Positions 523 through 22,028 of a DNA stretch of 61,374 bases are shown piece by piece (position 1 is the stretch's first letter; each line of letters begins with the position of its first letter). The notes beneath the pieces are model-generated. The model was given only the letters and a program-made list of their open reading frames with translations. It searched no databases and had not been told where the DNA came from. The stretch is from a virus. Location of the stretch: IMG/VR virus record IMGVR_UViG_3300029996_000082; one strand, written 5' to 3'. A program made the translations under genes and the position numbers.

Positions 523-903
523 ATGTCACAGCAGAGATTAAAGTTTAATAATTACACTCCGCCAAATGTAGATGCTGACGGCTATCAATTGTCTTTCGCA
601 ACTACTTCCACCTCAAATTCAGGGCGAACAATGCGAGGAAATATGGTTAATGTGCCTCTATTCACAGTAGAGGCATATAACCTTAAATGGACTAATATTA
701 AAGCTACTGATGTATCTAAAATTTTAGGTCAAGTTATGGGCAAAGCAGGATTTGATTTTTACCATTATAATATTTATAAAAATAAATGGGAAACAACTAA
801 ATTCTCTGTAGCAAATATAAACAGTCCTATTATAAATTTAATTGAGGGTATTGAAAAAGTAAGTCAGTTAAGTTTTCAGGTTACGGGGGCAAATCCAGTA
901 TGA
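523..903 (+). CDS. small tail component in the distal-tail-protein (Dit) position
   Basis: AAGGAGG SD 5 nt before ATG 523; sits directly after the tape measure gene; no motif recognised. Confidence 0.45.
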   Translation: MSQQRLKFNNYTPPNVDADGYQLSFATTSTSNSGRTMRGNMVNVPLFTVEAYNLKWTNIKATDVSKILGQVMGKAGFDFYHYNIYKNKWETTKFSVANINSPIINLIEGIEKVSQLSFQVTGANPV

Positions 904-3059
904 AAAATGTGTCAAATGCTTTTAAAGAAGTTATTAAAAATGGAGGTCCATTCTATGCTTATGCTAAGTTTAAATTAGTTGACGGCACAGAATTAGAAAT
1001 GACTTCACGAAAAGATTTTTATATTTCAGGTAATTCATACACACAAGGAGGTCAAGGACAATTCCCTCTTGGTGAGGCTGTATCTAAGACTATTGATATC
1101 GGCATTGATAACCTTGATGAACGATACTCTTCTTATGATTTTAACGGTTGTCAAATTGTATTATACACCGAAGCTGATTTAGCTGACGGTACTATCGAAA
1201 GGCTACAAGAGGGTATTTTCACTGTAATTGATTCTGTTACCCCTGGAGATATTATTGAACTCACAGCACAAGATAATATGTATAAAGCAGATATAAAGTT
1301 TAAATCTACAATTTCATACCCTACAAGTGCATTATTGCTTTTACAGGAAATTTGTACTGTTTGCGGATTATCTTTAGCCTCTACATCAGATTTATCTCAT
1401 ATTTCTTTTCAAATAAATTCCGCCCCTGATAATGTTACTGCAAGACAGGTGTTAGGCTATATTGCACAAATTATGGGAGGCAATGCTTTAATCTTGCCTA
1501 ACGGTCAACTAAAAATTCAGCGTTACAAAAAAGAAGATATTGCTAAAATGTCAATTCTTTCAGGCGGTAACTTAGCTGATAATATCTCAGATTATATTTC
1601 AGGCGGTAAGTTTGGAGAAACTGTTGAAGATGTCATTAGTGGCGAAGAGTTAAACGAATCACTACAATTCCATATTTTAAATACTTATATCAATGAACCT
1701 ACAATTGCAACTGATGATATTATTATTACAGGCTTAACTACAGAAGTTGCAGTTAAAGGCAGTTCTTCTGAAAAACAGACTATAACATATGGCACAGAAG
1801 GTTATATGCTTAATATCAACAATCCTTTAATTAAAGGCAGAGAAGAAGCTGGGTTAAAAGTTATTGGTAATGTTGTTATTGGCATAAGTACAAGACCGTT
1901 TTCAGGAGATTTTTCACCTAATCCTACAATTGAGTATATGGATAGTGTATATATTGTTGATAGAAAAGATAATATTTATCAGTCAATTGTATCTTCACAT
2001 ACATTTACTTATTTAGGAAATAGTTCTGTATCAAATAATACGCCGTCAAATGAAAAGAAAAATGCTACATATCAAAGTAATGCCTCTAATATTTATCGTA
2101 AAGCACAAGAAGATATTGAACAAAATAAAACAGAATGGGAAAAAACTGCTGAAATCTTGAATAATGAATTACAAAATGCAAGCGGACTTTTTCAGACAAC
2201 ACAGACAAATCCTGACGGTTCTACTATATATTATCTGCACGATAAAAAAACGCTTGAAGAATCACAAGTAGTAATTAAAGTTACATCGCAGGCAATAGGC
2301 ATATCTACAGACGGAGGCAACACTTATCCTACAGGAATTACGGTTGACGGAGATGCTATTGTATCAATTTTACAATCAGTCGGAATTAACGCAGACTGGA
2401 TAAATACAGGTACTCTAAAGGTAGGCGGAAAAGATAATGGCAACGGTTTAATACAGGTGTATGATAAAAATGGTGAATTATTAGGTAAAATAAATAACGA
2501 AGGCTTAACAATTAAATCAGGAGGAGTTGTTAAATCAGAAGCAACAGCTTATAAATATGTACAATTACAGGGTTCTAATATTTATTTTCGTGATTTAAAT
2601 AAAAATAAAGAGGTTATGTCAGTTATTGAAGGAGATACTACATCTTTAGATTTTTATGTGCCGAGTAGCTTTCATTTATTCAAAGGGGAATATAAAAGTC
2701 CAAATGCTGTACAAGTAATGAATTATGACGGTACTTCAAACACTACTAAAGTAACAAATTTAAGTGGAGCTATTAAAACGGCGAATGTAACAGATTCTTT
2801 TGTTTTAAGTAACAAAAGTACATTTAAATGTGAATCAGGCAGTACATTTACAGTAGATAATGGTGTTACAGTAGAAATTTATAGTCCTATAAATATGGAA
2901 GAATATACTATATCTAATTTAAAATTACAAAATTTAAAGGGAATAAACGGTACTAAAACTGTATCAGGAACACTTAGAGTAGTTACTTCTATAAATTCAG
3001 ACGGCACTTATAATTGGCGAGAATTACAGGTAAAGGATGGTTTAATTGTTGCTCTTTAA
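900..3059 (+). CDS. tail-associated / baseplate hub-fibre protein (Tal position), 719 aa
   Basis: ATGA stop-start overlap with the upstream gene; large protein after TMP and the Dit-like gene, as in siphoviruses. Confidence 0.6.
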   Translation: MKNVSNAFKEVIKNGGPFYAYAKFKLVDGTELEMTSRKDFYISGNSYTQGGQGQFPLGEAVSKTIDIGIDNLDERYSSYDFNGCQIVLYTEADLADGTIERLQEGIFTVIDSVTPGDIIELTAQDNMYKADIKFKSTISYPTSALLLLQEICTVCGLSLASTSDLSHISFQINSAPDNVTARQVLGYIAQIMGGNALILPNGQLKIQRYKKEDIAKMSILSGGNLADNISDYISGGKFGETVEDVISGEELNESLQFHILNTYINEPTIATDDIIITGLTTEVAVKGSSSEKQTITYGTEGYMLNINNPLIKGREEAGLKVIGNVVIGISTRPFSGDFSPNPTIEYMDSVYIVDRKDNIYQSIVSSHTFTYLGNSSVSNNTPSNEKKNATYQSNASNIYRKAQEDIEQNKTEWEKTAEILNNELQNASGLFQTTQTNPDGSTIYYLHDKKTLEESQVVIKVTSQAIGISTDGGNTYPTGITVDGDAIVSILQSVGINADWINTGTLKVGGKDNGNGLIQVYDKNGELLGKINNEGLTIKSGGVVKSEATAYKYVQLQGSNIYFRDLNKNKEVMSVIEGDTTSLDFYVPSSFHLFKGEYKSPNAVQVMNYDGTSNTTKVTNLSGAIKTANVTDSFVLSNKSTFKCESGSTFTVDNGVTVEIYSPINMEEYTISNLKLQNLKGINGTKTVSGTLRVVTSINSDGTYNWRELQVKDGLIVAL

Positions 3060-14392: not shown

Positions 14393-14415
14393 TTTCAAGC
14401 TCCATAGCTGATATA

Positions 14416-14750
14416 GGCATTATGAGTTTGGTTATGTTTGGTTGGGTTAAGTTTTGTTCAGTTAGGTTAGGCATTATGTGTTGCGTTCAGTTGAGTTTAG
14501 GTAAGTTGCGATGAGTTGTGTTGAGTTAAGCATTATGAGTTCTGTTAGGTTGGGTTATGTTTTGTTGGGTTTTGCTTCGTTAGGTTAGGCATTATAAGTT
14601 TTGTTATGTCGAGTTGAGTTAAGTTAAGTTAGGGTATGCATTATGAGTTAGGTTGTGTCGGGATTTGTTCCGTTTGGTTGGGTTTTGTTAGGCATTATAA
14701 GTTAAGTTAGGCTAGGTTGTGTTGGGATTGGTTGAGTTAATTAGATTTAT
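14416..14750 (+). repeat. six-unit G+T-rich tandem array (candidate replication-origin iterons)
   Basis: core GCATTAT(G/A)(A/T)GTT occurs within the 13-nt matches starting at 14416, 14470, 14529, 14588, 14637 and 14691 (spacing 49-59 nt), separated by GTT/GGTT/GAGTT-rich filler nearly devoid of C. Confidence 0.85.
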
Positions 14751-15323: not shown

Positions 15324-16037
15324 ATGGCAAGATTTAAAGTAACAGATTCAGACAAGTATGGAAACAACTCAGCTAATTATTTTTCACTTAAAAACGATAA
15401 AGATGTAGCAAGAGTAAGATTTATGTATCGTAAGGTTGAAGATGTAGAAGGTGTAGCTGTACATAAGGTTAATATTGACGGCAGAGATAGATATGTCAAT
15501 TGTCTGCGTTCATATGATGAACCTCTTAGCAAGTGTCCTCTCTGTGAAAGCGGTAGTTTTCAGCTTGCACGCTTCTTTATTCCTATGTATGATACGGACG
15601 AGAAAACTGTAAAGATTTGGGAACGCACAAAAAAGTTTGGTGCAAGGGTTTCAAGTCTTTGTGCGAGATACCCCGATTTGGTATCTCATATCTTTGAAGT
15701 TGAAAGAAACGGCAAAGCTGGGGATAAAAATACCCAGTATGAAATCTATGAAGTAAGTCAGGATGATACTAAACTTGAAGATTTGCCTGAAATCCCGAAT
15801 GTTATAGGTACAATGGTAATTGATGCCTCGGCAGATGATATGAATTATTATCTTGACACAGGAGAATTTCCTCCTATGGGCGGTTCGTCTTCTGATGATG
15901 AAGTATCAACTCCTCCGAGGTCAAGAGCATATGACAATGAGCCTCGTAATTCAAGAGGTAGAGAAGAACGCAGAGATACAAGAGAAAGTGAACCTGAGCG
16001 TAGAACACCTTCCCGTGGCAGAAGGGATAGATTTTAA
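15324..16037 (+). CDS. gp32-like zinc-containing single-stranded DNA-binding protein
   Basis: H-x12-C-x10-C-x2-C (HKVNIDGRDRYVNCLRSYDEPLSKCPLC), close to the T4 gp32 zinc site; disordered charged C-terminal tail. Confidence 0.7.
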   Translation: MARFKVTDSDKYGNNSANYFSLKNDKDVARVRFMYRKVEDVEGVAVHKVNIDGRDRYVNCLRSYDEPLSKCPLCESGSFQLARFFIPMYDTDEKTVKIWERTKKFGARVSSLCARYPDLVSHIFEVERNGKAGDKNTQYEIYEVSQDDTKLEDLPEIPNVIGTMVIDASADDMNYYLDTGEFPPMGGSSSDDEVSTPPRSRAYDNEPRNSRGREERRDTRESEPERRTPSRGRRDRF

Positions 16038-17584
16038 TGGGCTTATTTGATATACCAAAAAGACCCGATAAATCAAATGACCTACAAGTTGCTAAAAAAT
16101 CTAACCGTAAAGCTAATAAATCAAGCTCTACGGTTAGAGTGGGCAACAGCACATTACAAGTTATCTCAAATATCAAGGCAATGGTTGAAAAGAACTTAGG
16201 TTATCTTAGAGATAAATATATAGTTATATCTGATATAGATACTTTACATAATTATATATCTGCTTGTATAGATAACAATGTAATAAGTATAGATACTGAA
16301 ACTACAGGACTTGACCCTATGTTAGATAAAATTGTAGGTATTTGTATTTACACACCTAATCAAAAGCCTGCATATGTACCTGTAAATCATATTTCTTATG
16401 TGACAGGCGCAAGATGTTCAAATCAGTTGACAGAAAAAGAATGTAAAGCTGAATTTGATAGAATTGCAGAAACTAAGATTGATGTTATTATGTTTAATGC
16501 CAAATTTGATATTCGGGTTATGCGTAATCAGATAGGTGTTTATATGACTTGTACTTGGGATTGTTTGTTAGCGGCAAGACTTTTAAATGAAAATGAACCT
16601 ACTAACCGACTTAAAGAATTACATAAAAAATATGTAATGGACGGTAAAGGTGATGCGTTTTCATTTGATGCTTTATTCAAAGGTATTACTTTTGATAAAG
16701 TGCCTATTGATGTAGGGTATTTGTATGCCGCTCACGATGCCGAAATCACATACGAATTATATGATTTTCAAAAGCCGTATTTAACTGCTGATAATGAAAT
16801 TTGTATAAATTCAAGCTTACAGGATGTTGCTTGGGTATTTAAGAATATTGAAATGCCTTGCATTGAATCTTGTTGTGATATGGAAGATAACGGTATTGAA
16901 TTTGATTTTGAAGTTCAGAAGAAATTATCTGAAAAATATAATAAGCTACTAACAGAAAAGCAAGCACTTTGTTATACTTTACTTGAAAATTATCAAGATG
17001 ATATTGATAAATATATAGTTAAACATCCTAATTGTAAATTATCGAATCCTATCAATTTATCAAGTCCTGTTCAGTTAGCTGTATTGATATATGATGTTAT
17101 GCATATTGAGCCTGTTGATAAGAAATCTCCAAGAGGTACAGGAGAAGATATTCTAAAAAAGATAGGTACAAAGTTTTGTTTAGCTCTTGTAGAGTATAAA
17201 AAAGTTAGTAAATTAGTATCTGCATTTGTTGATAGTCTTAGTGATTATGTTAATCCTAATGACGGAAGAATACATTGTAATCTAAATCAGTATGGAGCTG
17301 ACACAGGTAGAATGTCTTGCAGTAATCCTAATTTACAGCAGATACCGTCACATACAAAAGATATTAGGCATATGTTTAAGGCTACTGATGATGAGTGCAT
17401 AGTATATACAGATACAGATATGTTTATTGTTGATAAATGGCAGGAAGTATATACGAATAAAGGTTGGATATATGCGTATAAATTACAATGTGATGATGTG
17501 TTACTGGGCGAAAATAATTTAAGTAGTATTGTTACTAAAATTGTGATTAACGGGCAAAAAGTAAAAATTTATATAAGGAGTTAA
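16037..17584 (+). CDS. polA: DNA polymerase I (family A), N-terminal fragment: 3'-5' exonuclease plus pre-motif-A part, with a 62-aa non-homologous tail
   Basis: ISIDTETTGLDP, MFNAKFDIRVM, YAAHDAEITYELY exonuclease motifs; NPNLQQIPSHTKDIRHMF; TAATG junction with the SSB gene. Confidence 0.9.
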   Translation: MGLFDIPKRPDKSNDLQVAKKSNRKANKSSSTVRVGNSTLQVISNIKAMVEKNLGYLRDKYIVISDIDTLHNYISACIDNNVISIDTETTGLDPMLDKIVGICIYTPNQKPAYVPVNHISYVTGARCSNQLTEKECKAEFDRIAETKIDVIMFNAKFDIRVMRNQIGVYMTCTWDCLLAARLLNENEPTNRLKELHKKYVMDGKGDAFSFDALFKGITFDKVPIDVGYLYAAHDAEITYELYDFQKPYLTADNEICINSSLQDVAWVFKNIEMPCIESCCDMEDNGIEFDFEVQKKLSEKYNKLLTEKQALCYTLLENYQDDIDKYIVKHPNCKLSNPINLSSPVQLAVLIYDVMHIEPVDKKSPRGTGEDILKKIGTKFCLALVEYKKVSKLVSAFVDSLSDYVNPNDGRIHCNLNQYGADTGRMSCSNPNLQQIPSHTKDIRHMFKATDDECIVYTDTDMFIVDKWQEVYTNKGWIYAYKLQCDDVLLGENNLSSIVTKIVINGQKVKIYIRS

Positions 17585-17586
17585 TT

Positions 17587-18963
17587 TTGAATTACGAAGA
17601 TTTTTTAAAATCCAAGCAGTACACATATAACAGTACAGGATTTGAAGTGTCTGAGAATGAATTAAATTCTAATATGTTTGACTTTCAAAAAGCAATTGTC
17701 AAATGGGCTTTAAAAAAAGGTAAAAGTGCATTATTCCTTGATACGGGATTAGGTAAGACTATTTGTCAATTGGAATTTGCTAATCAAGTATGCAAGCATA
17801 CTAACGGAAATGCTTTAATTTTAGCTCCATTAGCAGTAAGTAAACAAACATATCAAGAGGGACTCAAATTTGGCATAAATGTAAATATTTGCCGTTCTCA
17901 GGCTGATGTTACATCAGGTATTAACATTACTAATTATGAGATGTTAAATCATTTTAATTCTAAAGATTTTAATTGTATTATTCTTGATGAAAGTAGTATT
18001 TTAAAATCTTTTCAAGGCAAATTTTGTCAGCAAATAATTGATTTGTTTAGATTTACCGAGTATAAATTAGCTTGTACTGCAACACCTTCACCTAACGATT
18101 ATCAGGAATTAGGTACACATTCTGAGTTTTTAGGTGTAATGACAAGGACAGAGATGTTAGCAACATTTTTTATAAATGATGCTAAAGAAAATCATTGGCG
18201 TATGAAAAAACACGCTGAATCCAAATTTTGGGAATGGTTAGCCACTTGGGCTATGGTAGTTAAAAATCCAAAGGATATAGGATTTAATCATAGTGGTTAT
18301 GATTTACCTAAATTAAATATCAATCATATTATTGTAGATAGTCCCGTACAGAAAGGCTCTTTATTGCCTAAGGTAGCTGAAACTTTATCTGACAGAAGAT
18401 TGGCACGAAAATCAAGTATTAACAATAAATTATCTAAAGTTTCTGAAATTCTGAGTATGGTTGATAATTGTCTAATTTGGGTTGATTATAATGATGAAAG
18501 TGATTTAATATCCAAAAAATTTAATATTGTTGAAGTAAAAGGTTCAGATACAAATGAGCATAAAGAAAATGCAATGTTGGATTTTGCTAATGGCGATATT
18601 AAATATTTAGTGAGTAAGCCCTCAATTTGCGGTTTTGGAATGAATTTTCAAAAATGTTGTAATATGATATTTTTTGGATTATCAGATAGTTATGAGAAAT
18701 TTTATCAAGCAATACGCAGATGTTATCGTTTCGGACAGACTAAAGAGGTAAATGTGTATGTTATCATTAGTCGCAGTGAATTAAGTGTTTTAAATAACAT
18801 TAAACGAAAGCAGGAAAATCATCTGCGTATGCAAAGTAATATGATTGATAAAACTTCTGAAATTCTCAAAAATGAGATATGTTCAACAATGCGTATTACA
18901 GAAGATTATATTGCTTTGGAAAATGTTAAAATTCCTGATTGGTTAATTACAGAGAGGTGTTAA
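17587..18963 (+). CDS. SF2 (SNF2/ResIII-like) helicase-domain protein
   Basis: TTG start 2 nt after the polA-N stop; DTGLGKT, ILDESS, CTATPSPND, QAIRRCYRFGQ motifs. Confidence 0.85.
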   Translation: MNYEDFLKSKQYTYNSTGFEVSENELNSNMFDFQKAIVKWALKKGKSALFLDTGLGKTICQLEFANQVCKHTNGNALILAPLAVSKQTYQEGLKFGINVNICRSQADVTSGINITNYEMLNHFNSKDFNCIILDESSILKSFQGKFCQQIIDLFRFTEYKLACTATPSPNDYQELGTHSEFLGVMTRTEMLATFFINDAKENHWRMKKHAESKFWEWLATWAMVVKNPKDIGFNHSGYDLPKLNINHIIVDSPVQKGSLLPKVAETLSDRRLARKSSINNKLSKVSEILSMVDNCLIWVDYNDESDLISKKFNIVEVKGSDTNEHKENAMLDFANGDIKYLVSKPSICGFGMNFQKCCNMIFFGLSDSYEKFYQAIRRCYRFGQTKEVNVYVIISRSELSVLNNIKRKQENHLRMQSNMIDKTSEILKNEICSTMRITEDYIALENVKIPDWLITERC

Positions 18964-18965
18964 TT

Positions 18966-19847
18966 TTGGATATTAAATGTAAAAATCAATATGAGGGTAA
19001 TGGATTTGTTATTTACAATGGTGATAGTTGCGAGATTATGAAATCCATTCCTGATAGCAGTATTCATTATTCTATTTTTAGTCCCCCTTTCGCACAGTTG
19101 TATGTATATAGTAATAGTGTGAGAGATTTAGGTAATTGCAGGAATACAACAGAATTTTATACACAATTTAGTTATATTATTAAAGAATTGTATAGAATTT
19201 TAATTCCAGGAAGATTAGTGTCATTTCACTGTATGGATTTACCTACTCAAAAATCAAGAGATGGATTTATTGGACTGAGTGATTTTCCTGGAGAGTTAAT
19301 TAAAATGTTTCAGGAGGCAGGATTTATATATCATTCAAGAGTTACAATATGGAAAGACCCTGTTGTGGCAATGCAGAGAACAAAAGCTCTTGGATTATTG
19401 CATAAGCAGATTAAAAAAGATAGTTCGATGTGCCGTCAGGGTATAGCTGATTATGTAATAACAATGAGAAAACCAGGAGAAAATCCTGAAAAAATTTCTC
19501 ATACAAATGAAACTTTCCCTGTTAGTAAATGGCAGAATTATGCAAGTCCTGTTTGGATGGACATAAATCAATCTAATACGCTACAAAAAGACAGTGCAAG
19601 GGACGATAAAGATGAAAAGCATATTTGCCCATTGCAATTAGATGTAATCGAAAGGTGTGTTGAATTATGGACAAATCCAAATGACATTGTATTTACTCCA
19701 TTTATGGGAATAGGCAGTGAATGCTATCAGTCTTTGAAAATGGGCAGAAGGGCTGTTGGTATAGAGCTAAAAGATAGTTATTTTACACAGGCTGTTAATA
19801 ATTGCATTATTGCAAGTAAGTTTACAGATAAAAAATCTCTGTTTTAA
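18966..19847 (+). CDS. DNA N4/N6 methyltransferase (beta class)
   Basis: TTG 18966 after GAGAGGTG SD (track start 18939 overlaps the helicase); motif IV SPPF precedes motif I FTPFMGIGSE. Confidence 0.9.
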   Translation: MDIKCKNQYEGNGFVIYNGDSCEIMKSIPDSSIHYSIFSPPFAQLYVYSNSVRDLGNCRNTTEFYTQFSYIIKELYRILIPGRLVSFHCMDLPTQKSRDGFIGLSDFPGELIKMFQEAGFIYHSRVTIWKDPVVAMQRTKALGLLHKQIKKDSSMCRQGIADYVITMRKPGENPEKISHTNETFPVSKWQNYASPVWMDINQSNTLQKDSARDDKDEKHICPLQLDVIERCVELWTNPNDIVFTPFMGIGSECYQSLKMGRRAVGIELKDSYFTQAVNNCIIASKFTDKKSLF

Positions 19848-19903
19848 TTAACTTTAGGAGGTGAATTAAAATAAAAAAGTCAATTAGAGTAAAATCTAAT
19901 TAT

Positions 19904-20845
19904 GTGTTAATGTCAAGTGACTTCTCACAGCAGGAGCCTAAGACATTGGCGGCTATGTGTGCAAAAGCAGGAGATAGTCAGCTTTTAGATACATTTTTAG
20001 CAGGCAAGGATTTATATTCCGAGATTGCAAGTAAATCTTTTAATGTTCCTTATGAGGACTGTAGAGAGTTCAGACCTGACGGCACAGTAAATCCTGAGGG
20101 TAAAGAACGCAGAACACAAGCTAAAAGTATTTTACTTGGTATTCTTTACGGTAGAGGAGAAAAGTCAATTGCAGACCAGTTAAAAGTATCTGAGAAAAAA
20201 GCACACGAAATTAAAAGTAGTGTATTTAAAGCATTTCCTGCAATTTCAAAGTTTGAACAGGACAGTAAAGATATGGCTTATGAATTAGGCTATGTAACTA
20301 CTGTATGCGGCAGAAAAAGAAGATTGCCCGATTACAGTTTACCTGAATATGAGTTTAATTATATTAACGGAGTTGCTCCTGATGATGATTTATTAGATTT
20401 TGATGATGAAGAAGAACTAATTACAGAAGTACCCGAAAATATACAAGATTCATATTTAAGACAGCTAAATAGAGCATATTCTTATAAAGCTAAACAAACT
20501 ATTATTGATAAAGCAAAGGAAAATGGAATTACAATAACTTGTAATTCTTTAAAAATCGCAGATGCTGAAAGGCAATGTGTTAATGCTCGTATTCAGGGTG
20601 GGGCGGCTGACCTCACAAAGTTAGCTTTGATTGATTTAACTCATAATGAAGAGTTAAAATCTTTAGGCTTTAGACTTTTAATCCCTGTACACGATGAGGT
20701 TATTGCTGAATGTCCCGAAGAAAATGCTAAAGTATGTGCTGAATTGTTAGCTAAAACAATGTCAGGGGCGGCTGAAAAGATATTAAAAATGCCAATTAAA
20801 TGTGATGTTGAAGTTACAAAGTGTTGGTATGAAAGTTTTAATTAA
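19904..20845 (+). CDS. polA: DNA polymerase I (family A), C-terminal fragment (motifs A, B, C)
   Basis: SSDFSQQEPK (motif A), RRTQAKSILLGILYG (motif B), LIPVHDEV (motif C); frame is open upstream to 19865 and a strong SD lies at 19856-19863. Confidence 0.9.
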   Translation: MLMSSDFSQQEPKTLAAMCAKAGDSQLLDTFLAGKDLYSEIASKSFNVPYEDCREFRPDGTVNPEGKERRTQAKSILLGILYGRGEKSIADQLKVSEKKAHEIKSSVFKAFPAISKFEQDSKDMAYELGYVTTVCGRKRRLPDYSLPEYEFNYINGVAPDDDLLDFDDEEELITEVPENIQDSYLRQLNRAYSYKAKQTIIDKAKENGITITCNSLKIADAERQCVNARIQGGAADLTKLALIDLTHNEELKSLGFRLLIPVHDEVIAECPEENAKVCAELLAKTMSGAAEKILKMPIKCDVEVTKCWYESFN

Positions 20846-20867
20846 ATTAGAATCGAGGTGTAAAATA

Positions 20868-22028
20868 TTGTCTGAGTTACAAGAAGAAACTTATAGTAGC
20901 CCTATAAATTTGACACAGCAGTTTAAGTTTTGTGGTAATGCTTTTAGGGTGGATTTATACAAAGGGTGTGATTTTGGCTGTAAATATTGTTTTGCCAACA
21001 GTAATACATCTAAAGGTCATAATACAGGATTTGGTTTAGCACAGTTTTCGCAGATTGAACGCTATTTTAAACGAGCATTTGATGATAATGAATTAAATAC
21101 TAAATCTTTAACTGTAGAATTGTTACAGCATAGAGTACCTTTGCATTGTGGGGGTATGTCTGACCCTTTTCAAAAAAAAGAATTTGAATATGGTTACACT
21201 AAAAAACTTATTGAATTATCTAATAAATATAATTATCCTATAATGTTTAGCACAAAGACAGCACATTTACCAAAAGAATATTTAGATATACTTAATCCTA
21301 ATATTCACGCTTTCCAAAGTAGCATTATGGGATGGACACCTGATTTTATTAGAAAATATGAAGGGAATACTCCAACTGCTCAAGACCGTTTAAATTTTGT
21401 TTCATTATTGCGTGAAAGGGGATTTTGGTGTAGCATTAGGATACAGCCTGTTGTGAATTTATCAGAAGCACTATTGTTAGTAGATAATGCTAAATCAATT
21501 CCGAGTTATTATACTGTAGAACATTTAAAAATTCCGAGAGATAATATAAAAGTGCAAAAGTTATTTAAGAGTGAATACGCTAATTTTAAATGGGTATATA
21601 GTAAAAATAATTTTCGTAATATTGAAATTGTAACTTATATTAAAAGAAACAATATAGATGTAATTAAATCTCATGCAAATGCTTTTGGTATAAAAGTTGG
21701 AGTAGGGGATAATGATTTACATTTTCTTTCGCAGTCTAATTGTTGTTGTGGTATTGATACTATCGGTGATAGTTTTAATAATTATTTGAAATATAACTCG
21801 ACTTATTTTTCAACAGCTCAAAATATTGATATAGATAATTTATGGTTTCCAAAATGTAATTGCCGTAACATTTTTTACAGTTCGTCTCTTGCAAATAAAG
21901 ATAAGTATGTAAACTTTAATGAAGAAGTTCACACTTATATGAATAAATACCCTGAATTATTACCTACAAATAAGTATGATGAGATTTCAAGGATTACAGG
22001 TATTAAATTTAAAAAGAAATTATTTTAA
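20868..22028 (+). CDS. radical SAM protein, SplB / DNA-repair-photolyase-like
   Basis: TTG 20868 after GAGGTG SD; CDFGCKYC (Cx3Cx2C) in a DLYKGC...YCFAN context. Confidence 0.75.
   Translation: MSELQEETYSSPINLTQQFKFCGNAFRVDLYKGCDFGCKYCFANSNTSKGHNTGFGLAQFSQIERYFKRAFDDNELNTKSLTVELLQHRVPLHCGGMSDPFQKKEFEYGYTKKLIELSNKYNYPIMFSTKTAHLPKEYLDILNPNIHAFQSSIMGWTPDFIRKYEGNTPTAQDRLNFVSLLRERGFWCSIRIQPVVNLSEALLLVDNAKSIPSYYTVEHLKIPRDNIKVQKLFKSEYANFKWVYSKNNFRNIEIVTYIKRNNIDVIKSHANAFGIKVGVGDNDLHFLSQSNCCCGIDTIGDSFNNYLKYNSTYFSTAQNIDIDNLWFPKCNCRNIFYSSSLANKDKYVNFNEEVHTYMNKYPELLPTNKYDEISRITGIKFKKKLF

Follow-up and report, generated by a model that had tools for sequence, protein, structure and literature searches.

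A phage family A DNA polymerase gene split before motif A by a probable homing-endonuclease-type cassette with a HINT-derived, non-splicing tail

We studied the DNA polymerase gene polA in a gut-phage DNA stretch of 61,374 nucleotides (nt), IMG/VR record IMGVR_UViG_3300029996_000082 (the window, i.e., this whole stretch), where the gene is distributed over two open reading frames (ORFs) with two further genes in between. In our best reading, to which we assign a probability of about 0.7, polA is a gene in pieces that stems from a homing-endonuclease-type cassette and whose halves are translated separately and assemble non-covalently, without protein splicing. A preliminary description of the window had considered a split intein, a degenerate intein relic or, as a fallback, a two-subunit polymerase without splicing. 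The fallback is what we arrive at, joined with the relic option, i.e., the tail of the upstream half is HINT-derived and does not splice.

The insertion is delimited by an unsplit sister contig (L004). In blastn alignments, window and L004 share 95.6% nt identity up to position 17385 and again from 19900 onward. The tail of the upstream fragment, both cargo genes, the Shine-Dalgarno sequence (SD) and the leader of the downstream fragment thus form one block (17387..19900, 2514 nt), for which L004 has 6 nt (GG). L004 encodes an uninterrupted PolA of 766 amino acids (aa), P0002, found by protein search to be 96% identical to the N-fragment. It reads KATGG followed directly by YVLMSSDF, in accordance with the earlier statement that no polymerase sequence is missing. 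The alignment with uninterrupted relatives that had been proposed as a check therefore fixes the insertion point, and the pair of window and L004 displays a clean insertion relative to the uninterrupted allele of a close relative, as expected for a mobA-like cassette. Several samples (ENA, JGI, Logan) contributed a total of at least 22 contigs that carry the exact 515-aa N-fragment in identical gene order and show no frameshift or stop in either half, and the block is also present in a sister phage that is 98% identical (L008). An assembly chimera, which the preliminary description had named as a possible artefact, is ruled out by this recurrence. A megablast search of the region against 50,697 phage records gave no match.

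With regard to coding content, the ORF 16037..17584 (515 aa, TAA stop at 17582-17584) matches the Pfam profiles DNA_pol_A_exo1 and DNA_pol_A, the latter with profile positions 27-158 of 381 and ending at aa 459. The ORF 19904..20845 (313 aa) covers DNA_pol_A positions 154-381. That is, Pfam and the ORF listing bear out a polymerase in two ORFs whose motifs are divided before motif A, and all peptides quoted in the preliminary description were found. When both ORFs are joined and aligned with the unsplit polymerases of Dp-1, FA88 and P0002, exonuclease motifs I-III and polymerase motifs A, B and C are complete and collinear; the joined product is a family A polymerase (Pol I-like, with 3'-5' exonuclease). 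The ratio of non-synonymous to synonymous substitution rates (dN/dS) is about 0.06 for the N-fragment core and 0.017 for the C-fragment compared with the unsplit sister (38 synonymous and 3 non-synonymous changes). Such strong purifying selection on both halves argues for a working enzyme. For annotation, both ORFs are best called one split polA rather than truncated genes. Feature coordinates are provided in Table 1.

Table 1. Features of the split polA region of the window.
Feature	Position	Strand	Basis and remarks
PolA N-fragment proper	16037..17386	+	aa 1-450: 3'-5' exonuclease domain and polymerase domain to ..DIRHMFKAT
First part of C-terminal extension, DDECIVYTDTD	17387..17419	+	linker; resembles a degenerate motif A strand (cf. 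YVLMSSD)
HINT-derived beta domain MFIVDKWQEV..KVKIYIRS, 54 aa, plus TAA	17420..17584	+	AlphaFold2, Foldseek, profile search, hhalign
SNF2/DEAD-type helicase, 458 aa	17587..18963	+	Pfam Helicase_C, SNF2-rel_dom, DEAD, ResIII; PHROG 62/16 'DNA helicase'
N4/N6 DNA methyltransferase, 302 aa from TTG 18939	18939..19847	+	Pfam N6_N4_Mtase, E 1.7e-18; PHROG 67 and methylase part of PHROG 16
Shine-Dalgarno sequence AGGAGGTGA for C-fragment	19856..19864	+	read from sequence; homologous to SD before ATG-led leaders in L005 and L009
N-terminal extension (M/I)KKSIRVKSN	19871..19900	+	aligned with MKKSIRVRKN (L009) and MKRSIRTRKS (L005/L006); net charge +4
PolA C-fragment	19901..20845	+	motif A (YVLMSSDFSQQEPK), motifs B and C, through stop

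The N-fragment ends in a tail of 65 aa (residues 451-515). AlphaFold2 models this tail alone with a predicted local distance difference test score (pLDDT) of 93.9 as a six-stranded domain comprising tail residues 12-64, while residues 1-11 (DDECIVYTDTD) lie outside. The best PDB matches of the model in Foldseek are the MchDnaB-1, gp41-1, class 3 DnaB and Prp8 inteins as well as a BIL2 domain; these intein and BIL matches have probabilities of 0.97-0.99 with template modelling (TM) scores of only about 0.5. A PDB sequence profile search likewise places a BIL domain and DnaB and RecA inteins on top, with weak E-values. Since Pfam yields only one sub-threshold PT-HINT match on single tails (E 0.0012, 1/20 members), the homology had to be established by profile search and hhalign. 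A profile built from 20 tails matched 217 of 1.84 billion (1.84e9) representative proteins. Every match that carries the domain at its C-terminus is a PolA N-fragment, and all ten non-PolA matches examined are bona fide HINT/intein proteins (E 3e-8 to 4e-6). Aligning the tail alignment to seven such HINT domains with hhalign gave 96.7% at E 3.7e-10. 'Stand-alone' matches of 65-80 aa were rejected as independent genes; they are gene calls starting at the Met of DIRKMF.

The tail thus descends from a HINT domain, yet it cannot splice. In the hhalign alignment, tail residues 13-62 correspond to HINT columns 63-112 of 136, a segment that begins with the strand leading into block B and extends to the 'VY' at the opening of block F. 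Columns 1-62 (block A with Cys1) and 113-136 (the remainder of block F, block G and the His-Asn pair) have no counterpart in the tail, and the TxxH position of block B reads D-K-W-Q in the window and D-R-W-C/D/S in relatives. The comparison with intein profiles suggested in the preliminary description hence confirmed a HINT relation of its 'HINT-like tail' by profile, profile-profile and fold searches, but not the N-terminal HINT identity, for only the central segment is matched. Two marks it had cited fail for separate reasons: the C-I-x-x-x-T pattern taken for block A falls into the segment outside the HINT-derived domain, and the Cys exactly at the break is confined to the window lineage and replaced by K, E, I or F in relatives. 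Besides their HINT-derived tail, the N-fragments P0139, P0231 and P0172 also have a full intein further upstream, at about DNA_pol_A position 116-123, with Intein_splicing alone or together with LAGLIDADG.

The first tail part resembles polymerase sequence. The tblastn alignments of the N-fragment to the Dp-1 and FA88 polymerases extend through it up to residue 486, and MAFFT sets the tail segments KLVSTD and IVYTD against VLMSSD in P0049 and P0085, in which the break is placed after a complete motif A. We infer that the first tail residues are a degenerate copy of the motif A strand and not an intein block A.

The tail is under purifying selection. Among the best 120 homologues of the N-fragment, about 49 are N-fragments of 506-529 aa with about 55% identity, and each of these has a homologous tail of about 60 aa at its C-terminus. 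The consensus is ..F.VDRW.EV.T..GW.yA..l.vGD.l......V..I......kv.I.f, with W, E, W and GD invariant across lineages at this level of identity. For the tail, a comparison of window and L008 yields a dN/dS of 0.10, based on 6 synonymous and 3 non-synonymous changes; other pairs range from 0.12 to 0.5.

At the other end of the block, an in-frame leader IKIKKSIRVKSN (19865-19900) follows a TGA (19862-19864) and runs into YVLMSSDF. Leaders of relatives start with ATG behind the same SD (MKKSIRVRKN, MKRSIRTRKS, MKKLLTRKN). In the window, this ATG position is occupied by ATA (19871-19873), located 9 nt behind a perfect AGGAGG. The same ATA is present in 6/6 sister contigs checked; L008 and L173-L176 show it at this position. 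Given this arrangement, the C-fragment probably initiates at AUA 19871. Leaders are 9-12 aa long, and their last residue is S, N, Q or K among relatives, such that the Asn directly before the resumed homology, which had been listed as an intein mark, is a variable position. Tails carry net charges of -2 to -12 (window -3) and leaders of +2 to +5 (window +4); the opposite signs possibly reflect an electrostatic contact. With these two ends, the block has both extensions of a mobA-like cassette, i.e., a selected in-frame C-terminal extension (CTE) and a downstream N-terminal extension (NTE) with a host-homologous stretch. No allele combining the leader with an uninterrupted motif A was found elsewhere in IMG/VR.

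According to Pfam, the two genes between the polymerase halves encode, as had been described, a helicase and an N4/N6 methyltransferase. The helicase starts with TTG 2 nt past the N-fragment stop and is preceded by AAGGAG. For the methyltransferase, gene callers begin 9 codons later on the sister contigs (293 aa). The two genes match the two halves of PHROG 16, and 526 phage records have homologues in ordinary contexts outside polA. The genes for N-fragment, helicase, methylase and C-fragment follow one another closely on the same strand, and within 15.2-23.3 kb no promoter or terminator signal exceeds chance; the four genes therefore probably share one transcript.

We surveyed the cargo slot in 17 loci that have both the tail and a downstream motif A. 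In 12/17, it holds a GIY-YIG endonuclease of one family (46-80% mutual identity), which corroborates the earlier idea that the helicase-methylase pair sits in an endonuclease slot. The window and L008, which represent one lineage, carry helicase and methyltransferase (2/17). The slot is filled with a different 279-aa ORF in one locus (L006) and with a radical-SAM-like ORF of 329 aa in another (L025). In the remaining locus (L026, 419-467 in reverse-strand coordinates) it is empty, with 47 nt from tail stop to motif A; tail, leader and the stop-hop signature described below are kept there nonetheless. Neither the L006 ORF nor two small ORFs in the slot of L005 match Pfam. The radical SAM protein that the window encodes elsewhere was rejected as a counterpart of the L025 slot protein, as no homology extends beyond the Cys motif.

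In the relatives, the junction itself has a further peculiarity. A pattern scan of IMG/VR and a metagenome collection provided 35 distinct loci (e.g., L005:9045-9080, L007:3511-3545 and L016; others among L005-L007, L009, L011, L014-L017 and L019-L053). In 35/35, the leader is followed by YVLMSSD(Y/F)-Ser-stop-N(0-2)-Ser-CAG-CAA-GA inside motif A of polA, with CAGCAAGA after the second Ser; in RNA terms, with UAG as the stop, such a junction would read MKRSIRTRKSYVLMSSDYS-UAG-(N0-2)-UCA-CAG. The stop is TAG in 27 loci, TGA in 7 and TAA in 1, while TGG never occurred although the pattern permitted it. Most spacers (25 loci) consist of 1 nt, whereas 7 loci have 0 nt and 3 have 2 nt. TCT serves as first Ser codon in 33/35 loci compared to 9/103 uninterrupted genes, and other synonymous sites of the leader mini-ORF vary freely. 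This looks like a programmed ribosomal hop of 6-8 nt linked to the GIY-YIG cassette. That is, peptidyl-tRNA-Ser would quit UCU at the stop and re-pair with UCA/UCU 3-5 nt downstream, which would restore ..SSDYSQQEPK.. exactly. Frameshifting was rejected because 0-, 1- and 2-nt spacers would need three different shifts where one Ser-to-Ser hop fits all, and reassignment of TAG was rejected since TGA and TAA occupy the same position. According to a 2016 review, no natural occurrence of stop-hopping was known (PMC5009743). The window and its sisters lack stop and spacer; GAC TTC TCA CAG is read straight through.

These observations can be arranged in the following scheme. The cassette would target coding sequence immediately upstream of motif A. 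Its insertion (17387..19900 in the window) would provide the upstream fragment with an in-frame CTE, composed of the decayed motif A strand copy and the 54-aa HINT-derived beta domain, and would supply a cargo slot as well as an SD and a short basic NTE for the downstream fragment. Most relatives hold GIY-YIG in the slot and would join the leader ORF to the polymerase across the stop by the 6-8-nt hop. The window lineage would have lost endonuclease and hop, gained the helicase-methyltransferase pair, and changed the leader ATG to ATA. One operon would then yield two halves, with the C-fragment starting from AUA 19871 behind its strong SD, and the halves would form an active family A polymerase non-covalently. 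The acidic tail and the basic leader possibly aid assembly or folding, as their conservation and the NrdA precedent discussed below suggest. In a broader formulation, which we put forward tentatively and at slightly less than even odds, the window would be a domesticated member of an undescribed GIY-YIG cassette family directed at motif A in the family A polymerases of phages; the acidic, HINT-derived tail and the basic leader would form a non-splicing, split-intein-like association module, and active members would restore motif A by a 6-8-nt stop-hop (UCU-stop-N0-2-UCA).

Several findings weigh against our reading of a non-covalently assembled gene in pieces. In the window, tblastn with five GIY-YIG proteins found no homologue, so that the cassette origin rests there on the homology of tail and leader to those of relatives, and the window has to be seen as a derivative and not as an active element. 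The C-fragment frame contains no ATG, GTG or TTG before 19904 and hence no canonical start behind the SD. Where the window has GTG 19904, L008 has GTA; the sole canonical in-frame start common to both is the ATG inside motif A (MSSDF..). Initiation at AUA is inefficient in model bacteria. Furthermore, the tail of the window is less acidic than those of relatives, and in an AlphaFold2 model of the fused N- and C-fragment chain, the polymerase is confident while tail and leader have pLDDT values of 27-63 and no interface is predicted, a result that is neutral as to whether one exists.

In an alternative reading, the cassette has left tail and leader behind as neutral remnants, and the two subunits associate via the polymerase fold alone. 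In the fused model, the true motif A strand takes its place in the palm and neither tail nor leader makes a confident contact, and split T4-like gp43 and other endonuclease-split enzymes function as separate chains (PMC2677866). We nevertheless consider this reading unlikely: length, fold and the invariant W, E, W and GD of the tail are kept at about 55% identity with dN/dS of 0.1-0.5, the tail persists even where no endonuclease is left (L026, window), and analogous tails are required for the activity of Aeh1 NrdA (bioRxiv 10.1101/2022.08.31.505936). A further reading is that of a decaying pseudogene, where the change from ATG to ATA would have silenced the C-fragment and another polymerase would replicate the genome. 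The missing canonical start behind the SD, the fixation of ATA in the lineage and a cassette devoid of endonuclease and bypass would fit such decay. It is made very improbable by the low dN/dS of both halves (0.017 for the C-fragment against the unsplit sister, 0.06 for the N-fragment), their freedom from frameshifts and stops on at least 22 contigs and the perfectly kept SD; besides, Pfam detected no other polymerase gene in the set of window ORFs on which it was run, which span about 6.7-23.1 kb only.

A split intein, in which tail (N-intein) and leader (C-intein) would trans-splice the halves into one chain, could draw on the HINT ancestry of the tail, on the opposite charges of tail and leader as found in natural split inteins, and on the layout of N-intein, free-standing endonuclease and C-intein known from 'fractured genes' (PMC2677866). 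But the preserved HINT columns 63-112 of 136 contain neither block A with Cys1 nor blocks F/G, TxxH has become DKWQ, the Cys at the break gives way to K, E, I or F, and a leader of 9-12 aa without His-Asn and with a variable last residue (S, N, Q, K) is followed by Tyr at +1. The preliminary description had already doubted trans-splicing because of this Tyr, which we confirmed; given all these losses, the split-intein option is dropped and trans-splicing is practically excluded. We attach an equally negligible probability to a removal at RNA level, i.e., to the 2.5-kb block being an ORF-bearing group I or group II intron. Group I introns with GIY-YIG ORFs are frequent in phage polymerase genes, and an interruption in motif B of L008 looks intron-like. 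However, Rfam has no match at E<=1 in 17200..20100 or in L005-L007, the 5' end of the block is a selected protein domain in frame with the upstream exon, and between conserved tail and leader the cargo ranges from 47 nt to 2.3 kb.

If the gene-in-pieces reading holds, an essential replication enzyme survives a cut in its active-site region since the cassette carries its own repair kit: both fragments are extended, and relatives also have an apparent recoding site. This kit is built from a piece of a non-splicing intein and would thus link the two known routes by which homing endonucleases within genes are tolerated, namely inteins and the tails (CTE/NTE) that come with mobA and mobE. The slot is open to capture by unrelated cargo; helicase and methylase put anti-restriction genes into a polymerase operon. 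The most novel element, the putative stop-hop, belongs to the relatives, whereas the window holds an apparently decayed, cargo-bearing derivative. Research on translational bypassing has long been limited by scarce natural diversity. Here, the related loci would provide a directly testable set, with dozens of naturally occurring versions of one very short hop from Ser to Ser across UAG, UGA or UAA. If true, T4 gene 60 would be joined by a second natural lineage in which bypass is linked to a homing endonuclease, and stop-hopping would have a natural example.

Further observations concern other interruptions and the neighbourhood of polA. In L008 (10090-11200), the C-fragment is broken again inside motif B, between ..AKSILLG and ILYGRG.., by an ORF with GIY-YIG and NUMOD3. 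The upstream piece continues into ..NLITQGCVA, and similar odd endings are seen in P0080, P0098, P0109 and P0114. This interruption has the look of a group I intron, yet Rfam gave no match in L008 with this stretch included. In polA of L137 (about 800-2400, reverse strand), a GIY-YIG ORF is inserted near the junction of ..NQYGA and TGR.., and the frame appears to shift immediately ahead of YILMSSDF, which points to a further independent interruption site. Directly after polA, a second module swap distinguishes the window (20802-22028) from L004 (10307-13982) and L008. L004 encodes a 299-aa ORF, QueC, DUF6884, PTPS/QueD, radical SAM/QueE and GTP cyclohydrolase I (7-deazaguanine pathway); the window encodes just one, unrelated, radical SAM protein of 408 aa, and there is nothing in L008. 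Among these three, presence of the methylase cassette coincides with absence of the deazaguanine genes. Upstream of polA, in the intergenic region 14393-14718 of the window, 15-mers of GTTGGGTTA type are repeated in short tandem arrays (14426-14468 and 14549-14587), and GC skew and AT skew make a sharp excursion. The homologous L004 region can be matched to it in several registers. This part of the window may be an origin of iteron type.

Our literature searches found no description of such an arrangement in a family A polymerase. On the other hand, the architecture, which the preliminary description did not recognise as a described one, has clear parallels in the CTE/endonuclease/NTE(+HomR)/bypass cassette of T4 mobA and in mobE-split nrdA, and it resembles fractured genes. 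In the latter, the halves of a split intein flank a free-standing GIY-YIG or Vsr-like endonuclease gene (Dassa et al. 2009, PMC2677866). Both have a replication gene divided between two ORFs with an endonuclease gene in the middle, HINT-related sequence closing the upstream ORF, and ends of opposite charge. The inteins of fractured genes are complete and splice, while here only HINT columns 63-112 are left, without catalytic residues or a C-intein, and PolA is not among the listed host genes (PMC2677866). The nrdA of Aeromonas phage Aeh1 with mobE and the T4-like gp43 (PolB) with a GIY-YIG gene are likewise genes in pieces made by endonucleases, with products that assemble non-covalently (PMC2677866; 10.1101/2022.08.31.505936); they differ in enzyme and insertion site, their tails are not HINT-derived, and no recoding is involved. 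With regard to the cargo, phage helicase-methyltransferase genes of PHROG 16 type comprise the same parts but reside elsewhere among early genes (e.g., in Dulem virus 39) and not inside a polymerase gene.

The closest parallel is the T4 mobA element, which supplies gene 39 with a CTE of about 44 aa and gene 60 with an NTE (a unique part plus the host-homologous HomR) and a 50-nt bypass (bioRxiv 10.1101/2022.08.31.505936). In some of its clades, GIY-YIG or Vsr genes take the place of mobA; others have lost endonuclease and bypass while the split and both tails are kept. The tails are thought to restore function, and Aeh1 NrdA, split by mobE, needs CTE and NTE for activity (same source). The PolA cassette shares with gene 39/60 (Bonocora et al. 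2011; bioRxiv 10.1101/2022.08.31.505936) an insertion that cleanly interrupts a catalytic motif in a replication enzyme, a selectively conserved in-frame CTE on the upstream fragment, a free-standing homing endonuclease in a different frame (here in the relatives), an NTE made of a unique part and a copy of host sequence, and, in the relatives, a take-off codon with adjoining stop and matching landing codon. It differs in its host enzyme, a family A polymerase, in an endonuclease of GIY-YIG instead of HNH type, in the HINT-derived CTE, in an NTE of only about 10 aa, in the putative coding gap of 3-5 nt in the relatives compared to 50 nt, and in the helicase and methyltransferase that fill the slot of the window. 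The window itself corresponds to the state of the mobA clades in which endonuclease and bypass are lost while the split and both tails are kept.

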